A DNA stretch of 45,959 nucleotides. It comes from a virus. The first letter of the stretch is position 1. The number at the start of each line of letters is the position of its first letter. Location of the stretch: IMG/VR virus record IMGVR_UViG_3300009528_000009; one strand, written 5' to 3'. Positions 19,099 through 45,959 of the stretch are shown piece by piece. Both the position numbers and the translations under genes were made by a program. Below the pieces are notes generated by a model. It saw only the letters and a list, made by a program, of their open reading frames with translations, was not told the origin of the DNA and made no database searches.

Positions 19099-19890
19099 AT
19101 GACTATACCCGCAAGAACAGAGACAATTAAACAAGCATTACCAGGCGCAGGTAGCGGTTGGTCGTTGGGACATATAGGAGTTGGGCAAAGTGTTTATGCA
19201 GAAAGTGTAACTCCTACAACTACAATAGGGAAGCGATTAAAGGTTGGGAATAGAACATTCCATTATGCAAAGCATGAAGGTGGAACTTCAGCTGGATTGA
19301 TGCAAATATATGCTGTAGATACTGATGTAGAGGATACTGTAACTGTGGCTCATGGAATTGGTACTACAGAGCTAACCATAGAAGCTGCTACTATATTTGT
19401 TAAAGACCAGTATGCAGAAGGAATGTTGATTGTGCATAAGACTGGTGGAACTGGAGCTGGAGACCAGTATGTTATAAAAAGTAATGCTGCTATTGCAGCT
19501 AACGCAACTGGTCTAGTTACCATTTACGAGCCAGGACTTCTGACTGCATGGTCTATCACTGATACTGATGTAACTCTGTGGTCAAATCCGTACTTTGGTA
19601 TAGCACCAAACTCTGCAGTTACGTCTGCTGGAGCTGGTATTCCTCTCATTGACATTTCAGATGGATACTACTTCTGGTTACAGACTTGGGGGCCAGCAGG
19701 AGTTAAGATTACGACTGCTACAGACTCTGGAGCTGATACTGCTGAAGCAGCATTTGCAGTTAACGCAACAGGTGATTTGGTCAAACAAAGTGCTGGTTAT
19801 TTTCAGTGTGCGCATGTCCTGGAACTAACCTCTGATGTTACTGATACGGATGCTGACTTTGGCTATGTGTTCCTGACCTGTGATCCATAA
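19099..19890 (+). CDS. Hypothetical virion protein (263 aa)
   Basis: ORF track entry with a TGGAGG RBS. Confidence 0.65.
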   Translation: MTIPARTETIKQALPGAGSGWSLGHIGVGQSVYAESVTPTTTIGKRLKVGNRTFHYAKHEGGTSAGLMQIYAVDTDVEDTVTVAHGIGTTELTIEAATIFVKDQYAEGMLIVHKTGGTGAGDQYVIKSNAAIAANATGLVTIYEPGLLTAWSITDTDVTLWSNPYFGIAPNSAVTSAGAGIPLIDISDGYYFWLQTWGPAGVKITTATDSGADTAEAAFAVNATGDLVKQSAGYFQCAHVLELTSDVTDTDADFGYVFLTCDP

Positions 19891-35548: not shown

Positions 35549-36040
35549 TTATATCAGTAGTGAATTAAATAAACTAAATGTACTTGCTTCGGGAGTTCTT
35601 CCTAAAAGACTAGTTATATATTTTTGAGACTTTTTCCAAGCTAATGAAACAACTTCATGTCTTAGGTGAACTTCATTTGTAGATTCAGTATGCTTAAACT
35701 TTCTACATTCAAAGGGACGTGCTGAGTAAATCTCACATTGACCCTTAACATAAAATATACATTCTCCTCTTGGATCAGCAGGAGTTTCAGTACCAGGTGT
35801 AGCTGACTTTAGAGCAGGAGATAAAACAAAAATCTCTTTATCTTCTACCCACCAATTTACAGCTAACTTAGTTTTGAATAGCTTTGAAATAGATATGTTT
35901 AGCAATGTTGCAACATCTTTGATTTCTTTTGGTAAGAACCATCCAGGACAATACATGCATGCATTTTTGCACTTATTACAATTACAGTTTGTATCTTTTG
36001 TGCTATATACCTTACTGATTTCCTCTGTGGTAATTGCCAT
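35549..36040 (-). CDS. YkgJ-family Cys-cluster protein (CxxCxxCC-type zinc/iron-chelating domain)
   Basis: Contains CNCNKCKNACMYCPG, followed later by GECIFYVKGQCEIYSARPFECRKF. GAGGAG RBS. Confidence 0.65.
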   Translation of the reverse strand: MAITTEEISKVYSTKDTNCNCNKCKNACMYCPGWFLPKEIKDVATLLNISISKLFKTKLAVNWWVEDKEIFVLSPALKSATPGTETPADPRGECIFYVKGQCEIYSARPFECRKFKHTESTNEVHLRHEVVSLAWKKSQKYITSLLGRTPEASTFSLFNSLLI

Positions 36041-36064
36041 TTCTCTACTCCTCTTCTTTCAAAT

Positions 36065-36242
36065 TGGTGGAGGCGGGGACTGTTAGGTCCCGTGCAAGCT
36101 CATTACTCTGGCAGGATTCCCCAAGTGAACGTTTAATGTCTGCCTCGCCGACTAGTTGTCCTTTCTGGCGTTGCCTGTCACGCCTGTGGCCACCTTCTTG
36201 GGTTGTTATCACAGAGCTAGAGCTTGTCGATTATGCGCCCCC
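36065..36242 (-). ncRNA. tmRNA-like RNA with tRNA-Ala-type acceptor (G3:U70, A73, encoded CCA)
   Basis: On the minus strand, 5'-GGGGGCG pairs with CGCCUCC-ACCA-3' in a 7-bp stem with a G3:U70 wobble. AAUCGAC forms the D-loop analogue. CAAGCUC/GAGCUUG is a P2-like 7-bp helix extended by CUCUG/CAGAG. GGGAC/GUCCC is a T-arm with an atypical 6-nt loop. The internal domain is about 100 nt. Confidence 0.55.
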
Positions 36243-36473
36243 ATTCCATTTTTCTAACTTAATAAACTTTGCACTGTTAATTATAAGACCAAACAGATTT
36301 TCTAAGCTTTTCACACTATCACAATTCACATTAGATATTCCTGCAATAATTCCACAATGCTTACATACAAGTTGTAAATCTATTCGACCATCAAAATGCT
36401 GACGAAACCAACTAGGTGCTACCCATTCATGGTTCCCGTTATGCGTTACTACTGGTCGTTCAGAACACTTCAT
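36231..36473 (-). CDS. Hypothetical protein (80 aa); 3' end overlaps the RNA 5' end by 12 nt
   Basis: ORF track entry with an AGAGGTGAAA RBS. Confidence 0.55.
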   Translation of the reverse strand: MKCSERPVVTHNGNHEWVAPSWFRQHFDGRIDLQLVCKHCGIIAGISNVNCDSVKSLENLFGLIINSAKFIKLEKWNGGA

Positions 36474-37903: not shown

Positions 37904-38253
37904 TACTGGTCTTGCTTCTCTCCACCACACTTTTCTGCCTCCATTAACTCAGTTGCTCTCATCTTCATTATCAACCCATACCCTGCTACATCTCTCCAAT
38001 TCTCCACATCATCACTACGTCCCACTGCTATCCTAAACAACTTATCAACAATTCTAGTCACTGCTAACATATCTCCATACTGCTCTAGTGCTATGCCATT
38101 TGGATACAGCAACTTCAGCACTTGCCCTGACTGCTTGTATGACTCTCCATACTGAAGATGCTTTGCTGTCAATAACGTAGCAAGTTCCTCAGCTTCTTCC
38201 AGAAATACATGGTTGAGATTTACATGGATGTCCTCAAGTGATAGCTTTCGCAT
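37903..38253 (-). CDS. DUF1599-like (nucleotide-modification-associated domain 1 / all-alpha MazG-like) protein
   Basis: KHLQYGESY...LAVTRIVDKLFRI...ENWRDVAGYGLI matches the K...YG.s...R..DK..R...D...Y pattern. Confidence 0.45.
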   Translation of the reverse strand: MRKLSLEDIHVNLNHVFLEEAEELATLLTAKHLQYGESYKQSGQVLKLLYPNGIALEQYGDMLAVTRIVDKLFRIAVGRSDDVENWRDVAGYGLIMKMRATELMEAEKCGGEKQDQ

Positions 38254-38566
38254 TTTCCTCCTCCCACTTCCTCATCACCCCTGCAAATGTCTTTGGCTCC
38301 AGATACACTACCTTAATCTTCTTACGAAGGGCGAAGGCCATGCCGAGATCAAAGATAGTACCGAAACTACGTTGATCCCAAATAATATGTATTTCATCTG
38401 CTTGCTCAAGTAGGGAACGATTATGCTTACACACTCCTAGTGCATCTAGTTCCTCATGGTCATCAAAAGCAGGTAGTGCAACTACATGTCCTTTCTCTTC
38501 TAACTCAAAGACATGTGCTTCCATTTTCTCCTTATACTGAGTCGAACCAATTATCAACACCTTCAT
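38234..38566 (-). CDS. Nucleoside 2-deoxyribosyltransferase-like protein
   Basis: MKVLIIGS is the N-terminal strand. ADEIHIIWDQRSFGTIFDLGMAFALRKKI resembles aD.v.....S.Gt.fElG.A.algK. Confidence 0.5.
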   Translation of the reverse strand: MKVLIIGSTQYKEKMEAHVFELEEKGHVVALPAFDDHEELDALGVCKHNRSLLEQADEIHIIWDQRSFGTIFDLGMAFALRKKIKVVYLEPKTFAGVMRKWEEENAKAIT

Positions 38567-39399
38567 CTATTATAGTCCTCCCAAGCCTTTTCTATTGTTG
38601 AGTACTTCCTATAATATCTGAGGTAAATAAATCGTCTGAACTTCCTGAGTGCTAGTGTCTGTTTGTATAGCATGGGAAACGGATCAAAGCCCATTGAATT
38701 GATAATTTCACAGCGATACATGTTCTCTTCTGATGTAGTGTCAAATCCCATTAGGACGTAAATCATAGCTCTAATTTTATGTTTTTGTAACAACTTCATA
38801 CCTTGCAGAATTTGTTTCTCATCTCTCATTCTATCCCAAGCGAACTTAGGCTGATTCTTCCAATTAGTAAGTTTGATCCACCAAGCCTTTTCATCATCAA
38901 GCAATCTGAGGTCATTACCGCTATTATCAATCACATCCACTTGAGCATGAAGAATCTCGCCAAATGTATGCTTCCAATTTGGGTCATAAAACATATTGTT
39001 ATTCAAAAGCTCAATTGTATCAAACTTTTCATCATGGAATGTCCATATGGAATGATGTTGTTCTTCTTTGGGTAGCAAGGGAACTTTACAGAATTTGCAT
39101 TTACGTTTACAATCCCGAAATGTATATCCTAATGAGTGATCGAAATTGAATAATGAATAATCTGGTCTGCAACTCTCTATATCTGTTGGTAAACATTCCT
39201 GTGGATCATACCCAATTCCACCAGTCCAATCAGTCTTCTCTCTTGTACTCTTCTCAAACAACCATGATCCATAAGTTATATCAGCCTTCCATAGTGGCAT
39301 ATTTAACTTAACTTCATCTCCATGTTTTTTATAATAAGTGGAAACTTTCATCAAAGCTAAGTTATGCTTTGGCGCATCAGTTAATAGAGATACTTTCAT
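38563..39399 (-). CDS. Radical SAM enzyme (CX3CX2C) with N-terminal B12-binding-like Rossmann segment
   Basis: YTFRDCKRKCKFCKV contains C-x3-C-x2-C. The N-terminal HNLALMKVSTYYKKHGDEVKL resembles the class-B radical SAM N-domain. Confidence 0.6.
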   Translation of the reverse strand: MKVSLLTDAPKHNLALMKVSTYYKKHGDEVKLNMPLWKADITYGSWLFEKSTREKTDWTGGIGYDPQECLPTDIESCRPDYSLFNFDHSLGYTFRDCKRKCKFCKVPLLPKEEQHHSIWTFHDEKFDTIELLNNNMFYDPNWKHTFGEILHAQVDVIDNSGNDLRLLDDEKAWWIKLTNWKNQPKFAWDRMRDEKQILQGMKLLQKHKIRAMIYVLMGFDTTSEENMYRCEIINSMGFDPFPMLYKQTLALRKFRRFIYLRYYRKYSTIEKAWEDYNR

Positions 39400-45836: not shown

Positions 45837-45959
45837 CTTATGCTTACTACACCTTAGAAATAAAATATTGATTTGAAAGCCTCTATCCACAGTGGTCTCG
45901 GTAATGGAGTAAATTTGGGGTAAGTCTCTCTAAACATCTATGCCTAGTAGGTTGTGTCC
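45837..45959. repeat. Direct terminal repeat, right copy
   Basis: Identical to 1..123. Confidence 0.95.

Follow-up and report, generated by a model that had tools for sequence, protein, structure and literature searches.

A tmRNA-like RNA gene without a conserved tag is maintained in the early operon of related phages

The 45,959-nt stretch of virus DNA analyzed here (IMG/VR record IMGVR_UViG_3300009528_000009), referred to as the window, contains on its minus strand (36242..36065) an RNA gene of 178 nt that is real, conserved among related phages and kept in its structure. Comparison of sequences and covariance models showed that the family to which this RNA belongs derives from bacterial tmRNA. 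The reading we favor, at a probability of about 0.45, is that of a phage-encoded, tag-less tmRNA derivative that would be processed, charged and then compete for the partners of the host tmRNA. Interference with, or hijacking of, host ribosome-rescue factors was judged more likely than the performance of normal rescue, because the tag-coding part and the standard T-loop were lost while the alanine-accepting end was kept.

The gene (36065..36242) was delimited from its sequence, its fold and its same-locus homologs and reads 5′-GGGGGCG...CGCCUCCACCA-3′, closing on CGCCUCC-A-CCA; coordinates, strand and length agreed with the original prediction. The 5′ strand of the acceptor stem, GGGGGCG (nt 1–7; 36236..36242), which provides G3 of the G3:U70 pair, anneals with CGCCUCC, which provides U70 and is followed by A73 and an encoded CCA (nt 168–178; 36065..36075). 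All seven pairs, and the 3′ strand with A73 and CCA, were invariant (n = 5), so the 7-bp stem with a G:U third pair, discriminator A and encoded CCA that had been claimed for the window copy holds throughout the family. Next comes a putative stem-less D-loop analog, CAUAAUCGA (nt 8–16; 36227..36235; homologs (G)AUUCGA in alignment A2), at which the window has CAUAAUCGAC and the four homologs have AUUCGAC. The 5′ strand of the H2-like helix P2, CAAGCUC-UA-GCUCUG (nt 17–31; 36212..36226), is invariant bar one base in L138 and pairs with nt 133–148 (CAGAGU-AAU-GAGCUUG; 36095..36110), as indicated by folding and comparative pairing. In the window copy the pairings are CAAGCUC (nt 17–23) with GAGCUUG (nt 142–148) and GCUCUG (nt 26–31) with CAGAGU (nt 133–138), giving P2a and P2b 13 pairs in all, a long helix of the H2 type. 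The trinucleotide CAC (nt 149–151; 36092..36094), invariant across the five family members and as found in many genuine tmRNAs, joins P2 to the T-stem. The T-arm reads GGGAC-CUAACA-GUCCC (nt 152–167; 36076..36091), a 5-bp stem with a non-canonical 6-nt loop, and abuts the acceptor 3′ strand. The P2 architecture proposed in place of a cloverleaf was upheld, the acceptor, P2 and T helices all being backed by comparative data. A tRNA cloverleaf was rejected, as P2 stands where the D and anticodon arms would be and the T-loop is non-canonical; for the window copy, ARAGORN reported 0 genes and Rfam gave no match to RF00005 at E ≤ 10.

Enclosed by P2 is a hypervariable inner domain of 101 nt (nt 32–132; 36111..36211) with hairpins and a possible pseudoknot. 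Its helices in the window copy include CCCAAG (nt 41–46)/CUUGGG (nt 118–123) and GGCAG (nt 99–103)/CUGCC, both of which had been predicted and are present, but CCCAAG/CUUGGG and the likewise predicted GGCG/CGCC were not conserved in the relatives. The minimum free energy fold of the window RNA gave the same helices (-60.9 kcal mol-1, z = -2.5), and the G+C content of the gene is 0.54 vs. approximately 0.35 in its flanks. An acceptor stem, T-arm and NCCA alone are not rare, at 0.4 matches per shuffled window; with the P2 helix added the expectation fell to 0.023, and the full architecture including G3:U70 and A73 was found in 0 of 300 shuffles. The decisive evidence over chance, however, is conservation and covariation among the four homologs.

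Five distinct versions of the RNA were found at six loci (the window, L009, L114/L137, L138 and L139), each with an ERCC4 nuclease gene on one side and a DUF3987 primase gene on the other, in related phages of about 47 kb. The primases of the carrier phages were 76–94% identical at the amino acid level, and the small flanking ORFs have been swapped between phages. The RNAs are 134–183 nt in length, and the interiors, 58–106 nt in the relatives, are unalignable. Between phages whose flanking genes were 84–93% identical in DNA sequence the interior was fully replaced, with RNA ends 93–94% identical. This wholesale replacement, seen even between phages with 89% identity in the flanking DNA, counts against the decoy reading, which leaves it unaccounted for.

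RNAalifold and explicit pair counting agreed on four helices, in which 99% of cells pair compared with about 50% in slid controls (5 sequences). Every cell of the T-stem pairs, and four of its five pairs showed compensatory double changes; covariation rests on this single helix because only five sequences were available. Covariation in homologous phage contigs had been put forward as a check on the predicted helices, and they held. The unchanged acceptor, D-loop analog and P2, together with the co-varying T-stem, indicate that the RNA itself is under purifying selection. The T-loop differs in each member (CUAACA in the window, of 6 nt; GUAACU; CUAGCUG; GUCACUC; UUAGAUU); it is near-canonical only in L139 (UUAGAUU), and the window copy departs from the canonical UUCGAnU. 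In L138 and L139 the 3′ strand of P2 is 3 nt shorter, and its pairing with the repeated AGCUCU motif is kept by a shift of register. The near-invariant sequence of the P2 5′ strand, whereas its 3′ partner shifts register, is a further observation that counts against the favored reading.

The carriers found form a small group of related phages. The element was absent from the more distant primase relatives (L006–L008, L140 and L141). IMG/VR was scanned with protein queries and with five DNA patterns, which returned zero family members, L130 and L144 being chance matches only. When genome contigs were scanned for the P2 string, six chance matches and zero family members resulted. A BLASTN search of 50,697 phage records with the region matched nothing, and with L139 as query only the 3′-terminal 30 nt matched tmRNAs of Caulobacter and other phages.

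ARAGORN and Rfam, two of the searches proposed as checks on the original prediction, found no match in the window copy itself. ARAGORN reported 0 genes in the window and nothing for this RNA family in the relatives, and Rfam gave no match to the window copy at the gathering score or at E ≤ 10, including when a 211-nt stretch was searched, nor to L009. The link to tmRNA is statistical and is supported by L139 and a reciprocal family model. L139 aligned end to end with Rfam RF00023 (29.2 bits, E = 1.8e-10, below the gathering score of 47), its GAUUCGAC being set against the GGaUUCGAC segment of the tmRNA consensus, and L138 scored 7.5 bits on tmRNA and 21.4 bits (E = 0.0097) on tmRNA_permuted. 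The family model R1, a covariance model built from the five sequences (alignment A2 with the four-helix structure), identified the RNA gene as its sole match in the window at 161 bits, a score from a model whose sequences include the window copy. R1 also matched the short tmRNA forms L117, L111, L120 and L070 (E 1e-12 to 6e-10) and the TLD-only RNA of mycobacteriophage DS6A (31 bits, E = 4.6e-7). A 3′ end of the form CAC-T-stem-CCCCGCCUCCACCA is common to dozens of ARAGORN-confirmed tmRNAs. The Rfam score of L139 and the R1 matches thus support the claim of a tmRNA-like RNA with tRNA-Ala identity elements.

The RNA gene is embedded in a tightly packed minus-strand operon of a phage genome in which terminase, portal, primase and other phage genes were detected. 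Upstream lies a Cys-rich 80-aa ORF (36231..36473, minus strand) that overlaps the RNA by 12 nt, its last four codons, including the UAA stop, falling within nt 1–12. A homolog of this ORF (79% identical) was found only in L009, and because a 49-aa ORF takes its place in L114, the 80-aa ORF is not an obligatory partner. Downstream is a YkgJ-like CxxCxxCC gene (35549..36040, minus strand; Pfam PF03692), which lies outside the element and serves as context only; both neighbors are as originally described. The RNA element was absent from L001–L005, relatives identified by the YkgJ gene, and this gene is a mosaic passenger. The sequence scan around the RNA gene found no terminator-like site, in keeping with the claimed lack of a dedicated terminator, and no nearby promoter. 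Position -1 is U in all five copies. After CCA, an A/U-rich 3′ trailer, A-n-UUGAAAG(G/A)A (36041..36064, minus strand), is conserved at all five loci, though the downstream genes differ, and holds the RBS of whichever gene comes next. Release from the operon transcript by RNase P is plausible on these sequence features, given U(-1) in five of five copies and the lack of a promoter or terminator nearby. No SmpB or other RNA partner encoded by the phage was found in the early operon with Pfam and PHROGs.

In the mechanism we propose, the RNA would be transcribed within the long minus-strand early/replication operon, cut by RNase P at G1 and trimmed at its 3′ end to the encoded CCA. After being charged with alanine by the host AlaRS, it would draw away the partners of the host tmRNA (AlaRS, EF-Tu and possibly SmpB), either competing for them or serving as a decoy in trans, and trans-translation may be dampened or diverted in infection, by analogy with what has been reported for TLD-only RNAs in E. 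coli. The parts kept are the alanine-type acceptor, the T-stem stacked on the acceptor, the putative D-loop analog (A)AUCGAC and the H2/P2 helix leaving the tRNA-like domain. A short domain of hairpins, different in each phage, has taken the place of the pseudoknot ring and the tag ORF. The degeneration of the T-loop speaks, on sequence grounds, against ordinary passage through the ribosome. For the same reason, binding and titration of SmpB by the window variant are uncertain. Among the options raised in the original prediction, a tag-less alanyl-accepting domain or decoy fit best, and a working, tagging "miniaturised tmRNA" was least supported.

The alternative that survives best, though we consider it unlikely, is a trans-acting RNA whose hypervariable interior is the business end, the tmRNA-like frame serving stability, processing or delivery; the RNA might, for example, inhibit a host anti-phage nuclease or sensor that recognizes tRNA- or tmRNA-like RNAs, or act as a decoy for it. 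Complete replacement of the interior between conserved ends is a pattern typical of an arms race or of cassettes, and in every member purines predominate in the loop of the last hairpin. Against this, no target was found: BLASTN revealed no similarity of the interior in the phage database, and its best complement in its own phage genome was 10 nt, within the range of shuffles, by which an antisense regulator was also rejected. Interior swapping may moreover be ordinary recombination, because the whole neighborhood is mosaic, and we know of no defence system that targets tmRNA specifically.

Somewhat less likely is a cis-acting, tRNA-like punctuation, in which the operon transcript would be cut at the element by RNase P and 3′ processing, so that the genes on either side are uncoupled in stability and translation, with the RNA as a by-product. 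The location in a tight operon without its own promoter or terminator, U(-1) and the conserved trailer with the RBS of the next gene all agree with this, and in the window and L009 the cut would take off the stop codon of the upstream ORF. An acceptor/T minihelix suffices for RNase P, however, and G3:U70, A73, AUUCGAC and the long P2 are unneeded for such a role and yet conserved. The short relatives L070/L111 and L117, in addition, are free-standing, with apparent promoters of their own.

An equally doubtful alternative is a working minimal tmRNA (TLD-H2-pseudoknot-short ORF-hairpin-H2, without PK2-4) that would be charged with alanine and, with SmpB, enter stalled ribosomes, adding nothing or a short, lineage-specific, non-degradative tag, so that ribosomes on phage messages are rescued and the products spared. 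The architecture matches the tmRNA core, and PK2-4 are dispensable in E. coli tmRNA. The candidate tag frames originally proposed do exist in the window copy, and in one of them, GCA-ACG-...-CAU-UAA, the UAA falls in frame in the loop of the last hairpin, which abuts the P2 3′ strand. Some frame with a stop ahead of the P2 3′ strand is present in every member, and the interior would be free to vary if any tag would do. These frames were not conserved among the relatives, however. When every frame of the five RNAs was examined, no common peptide, C-terminal motif, resume context or stop position was found, and no conserved pseudoknot (PK1) was present among the five members; the short length, odd T-loop and missing tag flagged at the outset were borne out. 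In L138 and L139 the last hairpin and its surroundings are free of stops, stops are expected by chance in a random stretch of 60–100 nt, and T-loop and D-loop features used by all ribosome-active tRNAs and tmRNAs have degenerated. A reading of the P2 5′ strand as Q-A-L-A-L-stop was set aside as probably a coincidence of the AGCUCU repeat. In its wider form, a stripped-down but active trans-translation RNA that is alanyl-charged and frees stalled ribosomes without a templated tag, or with a short, lineage-specific, non-degradative tag from the interior, this idea is slightly more improbable still. If true, the phage would rescue ribosomes on its own messages and avoid ClpXP-type destruction of its proteins, and the RNA would be the smallest natural tmRNA, working without a canonical T-loop.

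Very unlikely is that the element has lost all function, either as the decaying remains of an ssrA gene captured from a host or as a tmRNA fragment of the attP type. Degeneration of the T-loop and loss of the tag are in line with decay, and 3′ fragments of tmRNA adjoin integrases in other contigs (L023, L084, L086 and L089). But both the 5′ and the 3′ half are present here and paired, the invariant acceptor, D-loop analog and P2 with the co-varying T-stem point to purifying selection on the RNA, and it is kept in five phages despite exchanged neighbors. No integrase was detected among the ORFs scanned, and with both RNA halves present an integration remnant was rejected. That the element is an inverted repeat arisen by chance, or belongs to a protein-coding sequence such as the 55-aa GTG ORF that exists at 36045–36212, is refuted, the frequency of the loose acceptor/T-arm match in shuffles notwithstanding, by the shuffles of the full architecture, by lengths that differ among homologs by non-multiples of three (which exclude coding), by the lack of a conserved frame and by the covarying helices.

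Phage tmRNAs are known, but to our knowledge CDS-less truncated forms are known mainly from one mycobacteriophage, DS6A. What is new here is a second, structurally distinct family of CDS-less phage tmRNA, a degenerate form of a known rare kind, in which the AlaRS identity set, the AUUCGAC motif and the H2 helix are under strict selection and the tag, pseudoknot ring and canonical T-loop have been discarded. Because ARAGORN and Rfam both miss the window copy, such RNAs are probably under-counted in viromes; short forms of 78–139 nt also surfaced in the same metagenome scan. If the favored reading as an inhibitor or hijacker of trans-translation is true, it would be a naturally occurring RNA tool against a pathway that is itself a target of antibiotics, and one could probe with it directly how much of the tRNA-like domain is enough for recognition by AlaRS, EF-Tu and SmpB.

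With bacterial tmRNA (ssrA; RF00023) the phage RNA shares the 7-bp acceptor with G3:U70, A73 and CCA, and a T-stem of 5 bp that directly precedes the 3′ strand of the acceptor. Its putative D-loop analog, stem-less and ending in AUUCGAC, and an H2 that starts at GAC and closes with G-C-A and one unpaired C before the T-stem also resemble those of tmRNA, and many real tmRNAs have exactly the same terminal CAC-T-stem-CCCCGCCUCCACCA. It differs in its length of 134–183 nt vs. about 350 nt, in having no conserved PK1, tag ORF or PK2-4, in a D-loop analog that is 3–5 nt shorter and without GG, and in its variable, non-canonical T-loop.

The TLD-only tmRNA of DS6A (tmRNA Website ID 11587) is likewise phage-encoded, without a coding sequence, and located among replication-module ORFs, between DS6A gp33 and DNA pol III. 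Its sequence is described, in passages of PMC4131195 and PMC11915505, as "little more than the TLD". In the same passages a TLD-only-like molecule is reported to strongly inhibit tmRNA in E. coli, perhaps via titration of SmpB (PMC4131195, citing Mao 2009; PMC11915505). The DS6A RNA has about 80 nt, a TLD with a short H2 hairpin, a canonical UUCGAUU T-loop, a GG-containing D-loop and a CCA that is not encoded, in contrast to the 178 nt, longer H2, hypervariable domain of about 100 nt, degenerate T-loop and encoded CCA of the window RNA. Of the features of the DS6A-type class, the window family has the encoding by a phage, a tmRNA-type TLD and no tag frame, but the extended P2, the 101-nt variable domain and the non-canonical T-loop of the window RNA set it apart.

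Short tmRNA-like RNAs were also present in metagenomic, partly phage-like contigs (L070/L111, 139 nt; L117, 81 nt; L120, 78 nt). They too are truncated, have the GGGGGCG/CGCCUCC-ACCA acceptor and the CAC junction, receive no ARAGORN call and match the family model over their full length (41–50 bits). Unlike the window family they have a canonical T-loop and a GG-UUCGAC D-loop and score 41–62 bits on Rfam tmRNA, and their P2 and interior are unrelated to it. L070/L111 and L117 are free-standing genes with apparent promoters of the TATAAT type (-10 boxes by eye).

Organelles provide a further parallel. CDS-less forms of tmRNA occur in jakobid mitochondria as well as in plastids. The plastid forms are about 65 bp (PMC11915505). 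Like the phage RNA, the organellar tmRNAs have lost the template for a tag and retain a tRNA-like domain that accepts alanine, but they are much shorter and have no extended H2 or variable domain. Compared with tRNA-Ala, finally, the phage RNA is without a D-arm, anticodon arm or cloverleaf, and has in common with it G1-C72, G2-C71, G3:U70, G4-C69, A73 and CCA, which constitute the AlaRS identity set. An acceptor/T minihelix bearing AlaRS identity features can be charged.

The RNA occupies window 36242..36065 on the minus strand (GGGGGCGCAUAAUCGACAAGCUCUAGCUCUG...CAGAGUAAUGAGCUUGCACGGGACCUAACAGUCCCCGCCUCCACCA, 178 nt in total). All pairings listed in the original prediction are present, and the minimum free energy structure (-60.9 kcal/mol, z=-2.5) recovers the acceptor stem, the P2 helix leaving the tRNA-like domain (P2a, CAAGCUC/GAGCUUG; P2b, GCUCUG/CAGAGU) and the T-arm. 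With a G+C content of 0.54 versus ~0.35 in the flanks, the segment stands out as a G+C island. It occupies the space between an 80-aa ORF upstream (36231-36473), the final 12 nt of which lie inside the RNA, as claimed, and include its UAA, and a YkgJ/CxxCxxCC gene downstream (35549-36040). No promoter-like or terminator-like site adjoining the RNA was found, in agreement with the lack of a dedicated terminator pointed out previously. An exact 123-nt overlap of the window ends (1-123 = 45837-45959) indicates that the phage genome is complete and circularly assembled (45,836 bp, G+C 0.414); it has genes for terminase, portal, Sak4-type recombinase, exonuclease, SSB, ERCC4 nuclease and DUF3987 primase; no tRNA genes were found and no integrase was detected in the window. 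Elsewhere in the early operon (38234-39399, minus strand), a nucleoside 2-deoxyribosyltransferase-like ORF adjoins a radical-SAM-domain ORF, and the pair may be a DNA-modification module.

An acceptor stem, T-arm and NCCA alone were common by chance (0.4 per shuffled window). The expectation fell to 0.023 when a P2 helix at the right place was also required, and with G3:U70 and A73 added none of 300 shuffles qualified. A chance inverted repeat and protein coding were both excluded. Two of the detectors suggested as checks failed to recognize the window copy: ARAGORN returned no match in the window, and Rfam none, whether at the gathering score or with E<=10 allowed, even with the search confined to 211 nt. 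BLASTN of the RNA region against 50,697 phage records also returned no match.

Relatives of the YkgJ gene (L001-L005) have only that gene in common with the window and lack the RNA. The 80-aa ORF has one relative (79% identity), at locus L009, directly followed by a clear homologue of the RNA. A search of metagenomes for the RNA 3' end matched mostly genuine tmRNAs, indicating that a CAC-T-stem-CCCCGCCUCCACCA end is ordinary for a tmRNA, and added one family member, L114; relatives of the primase yielded L137 (identical to L114), L138 and L139. The element is absent from more distant primase relatives, and scans of IMG/VR and the genome collection found no family member. Every homologous locus places the RNA between the ERCC4 nuclease and primase genes, with varying small ORFs around it (80 aa - RNA - YkgJ - 89 aa in the window, 80 aa - RNA - 54 aa - 55 aa in L009, 49 aa - RNA - 62 aa in L114).

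Among the five distinct family sequences (178, 145, 183, 182 and 134 nt), the first 31-33 nt are near-identical (acceptor 5' strand, (G)AUUCGA, CAAGCUCUAGCUCUG) and the last 45-50 nt are common to all, while the interior 58-106 nt cannot be aligned. Between the window and L114 the flanking genes are 89-93% and the RNA ends 93-94% identical, and the interiors are without any similarity. That function resides in this variable interior, for instance in an anti-defence role, is unlikely; no antisense match of the interior to the phage genome exceeded chance. Directly 5' of CAGAG, four members carry a last hairpin of 4-6 bp with a purine-rich loop, and its predicted window counterpart, GCAG/CUGC, would be pseudoknotted with CCCAAG/CUUGGG.

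All-frame translation of the five RNAs revealed no common peptide, stop position or resume context and no hydrophobic ...LAA-type end, the last of which had already been reported missing from the window copy. Neither L138 nor L139 has a stop within or close to the last hairpin. The candidate tag frames proposed originally do exist in the window copy but are private to it. That the RNA is a minimal but active tmRNA whose tags are arbitrary is improbable. In one frame the P2 5' strand encodes Q-A-L-A-L and then a stop in both the window and L114; since the stop is missing in L009 and L139 and the sole substitution in the stretch (L138) is non-synonymous, this frame was judged a coincidental product of the AGCUCU repeat.

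The UAA of the upstream 80-aa ORF forms RNA nt 10-12 (overlap at window 36231-36242; likewise L009:7559-7570), and in L114, L138 and L139 the upstream stop codon ends 1 nt before G1. With the stop inside the RNA, an RNase P cut at G1 would leave a non-stop mRNA, a substrate for trans-translation. A comparable smpB/ssrA overlap has been discussed for Carsonella (PMC4131195). The 3' trailer, A-n-UUGAAAG(G/A)A, is kept and carries the RBS of whatever gene comes next; a cis-acting processing signal is a doubtful explanation of the element.

RNAalifold of the family returned exactly four helices: acceptor, P2a, P2b and T. By explicit count 99.2% of cells were paired, versus 41-52% with partners slid. 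The test of covariation in homologues that had been called for gave compensatory double changes at four of five T-stem pairs (GGGAC/GUCCC, GGGCC/GGCCC, GAGGG/CCCUC, AGGGG/CCCCU), with the acceptor invariant and one substitution in the P2 5' strand (L138); a decaying relic is highly improbable. The T-loop is unlike in each member (CUAACA, GUAACU, CUAGCUG, GUCACUC, UUAGAUU). The P2 5' strand (window 36212-36226, RNA nt 17-31) contains a tandem AGCUCU repeat that permits two registers, and members differ in their use: in L138 and L139 the 3' strand is 3 nt shorter and pairs in shifted register with the repeated AGCUCU.

L139, the member with the most canonical T-loop, matched the Rfam tmRNA model over its full length, its interior being scored as a deletion (29.2 bits, E=1.8e-10; gathering score 47), and its GAUUCGAC, GAC...GCA-C junction and T-arm aligned to the consensus. 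L138 matched the 3' piece of tmRNA_permuted (E=0.0097), and L009 and the window copy had no Rfam match. The family therefore forms a graded series with the window copy at its degenerate end. A covariance model of the five sequences (R1) scored them at 120-166 bits and found nothing else in the window. Its full-length matches to other short metagenomic tmRNA-like RNAs (L117, 50 bits; L111, L120 and L070, 41-47 bits) are mostly inflated, the loci having been retrieved through the shared 3' pattern. The published RNA of mycobacteriophage DS6A, which consists of the tRNA-like domain (TLD) only, matched at 31 bits (E=4.6e-7); it was retrieved without that pattern but through BLAST with the 3' part of L117, so this match is not fully independent. 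The matches of L139 and of R1 support the tmRNA-like reading, originally put forward with reservation. Judged by sequence, the RNA is homologous to tmRNA but not a member by curated criteria, falling short in T-loop, tag and detector score. On this comparative evidence, we show the element to be a selected, structured RNA gene descended from tmRNA.

Other reduced forms were encountered. L070:7630-7768 (plus strand) and L111:2755-2893 (minus) hold a tmRNA-like RNA of 139 nt whose T-loop is canonical and which, by eye, has a TATAAT-type promoter of its own; it escapes ARAGORN but scores above the Rfam tmRNA gathering score (52.8 and 61.6 bits). The L070 contig is phage-like (tail-fibre chaperone, Sipho_Gp157, DNA methylases). 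L117:4219-4299 (minus, 81 nt) and L120:61-138 (plus, 78 nt), from metagenomic contigs, are TLD-only tmRNA-like RNAs of DS6A-like form scoring slightly below the Rfam tmRNA gathering score (43.5 and 41 bits). The one published phage case may understate how widespread truncated tmRNAs are. At L012, L013, L021, L026, L029, L034 and many further marine loci, contigs with tRNA arrays carry permuted (two-piece) tmRNA genes, among whose tags are DNSYALAA and DNSYKMAA; the contigs probably belong to large marine phages or streamlined bacteria. In human gut contigs (L023:5927-5957, L084, L086, L089), only a tmRNA 3' T-arm and acceptor fragment directly follows an ORF with a tyrosine-recombinase-like HDLRH motif; the fragments look like att-site remnants of integration into ssrA, not RNA genes. 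In Achromobacter phage JWDelta (L143:1413-1530, record 19680-19797), the intergenic region that follows an HNH endonuclease gene has an unannotated stretch terminating in GGGAGUUCGAUUCUCCCCGGCUCCACCA, a T-arm and acceptor end of tmRNA/tRNA-Ala-like type; the stretch matches R1 weakly (14 bits).

The RNA would be co-transcribed with the early operon, released by RNase P, as suggested by the U at position -1 in 5/5 copies and the lack of its own promoter, and trimmed at its 3' end to the encoded CCA. The released molecule, probably charged with alanine, would act in trans on components of host trans-translation; the analogy with TLD-only RNAs makes a competitor or decoy role the most likely. With its degenerate T-loop and short D-loop the RNA may no longer bind SmpB, and the partners that matter would then be AlaRS, EF-Tu, RNase P or another factor. 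Neither the strict conservation of the P2 5' strand nor the wholesale replacement of the interior is explained by a decoy. The significance lies in a well-supported RNA family missed by detectors, with a plausible and directly testable role in host takeover.

Phage tmRNAs are known from Bxz1-like mycobacteriophages and Bacillus phage G, and in BLASTN of phage records with L139 the 3'-terminal 30 nt matched tmRNAs of Caulobacter and other phages. CDS-less tmRNA forms of ~65 bp are reported from plastids (PMC11915505). The DS6A RNA, entered as "TLD only" in tmRNA database papers (PMC4131195; PMC11915505), is ~80 nt long, has a canonical T-loop and sits between gp33 and DNA pol III. In these papers a similar molecule, chargeable or not, is described as strongly inhibiting tmRNA in E. 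coli, perhaps via SmpB titration (PMC4131195; PMC11915505). The DS6A RNA is the closest in kind to the window RNA, which differs from it in an extended H2-like P2, a hypervariable cap and a degenerate T-loop. Compared with tmRNA, the window RNA has lost the tag and canonical T-loop but retains the AlaRS identity set, the 3' half of the D-loop and H2.
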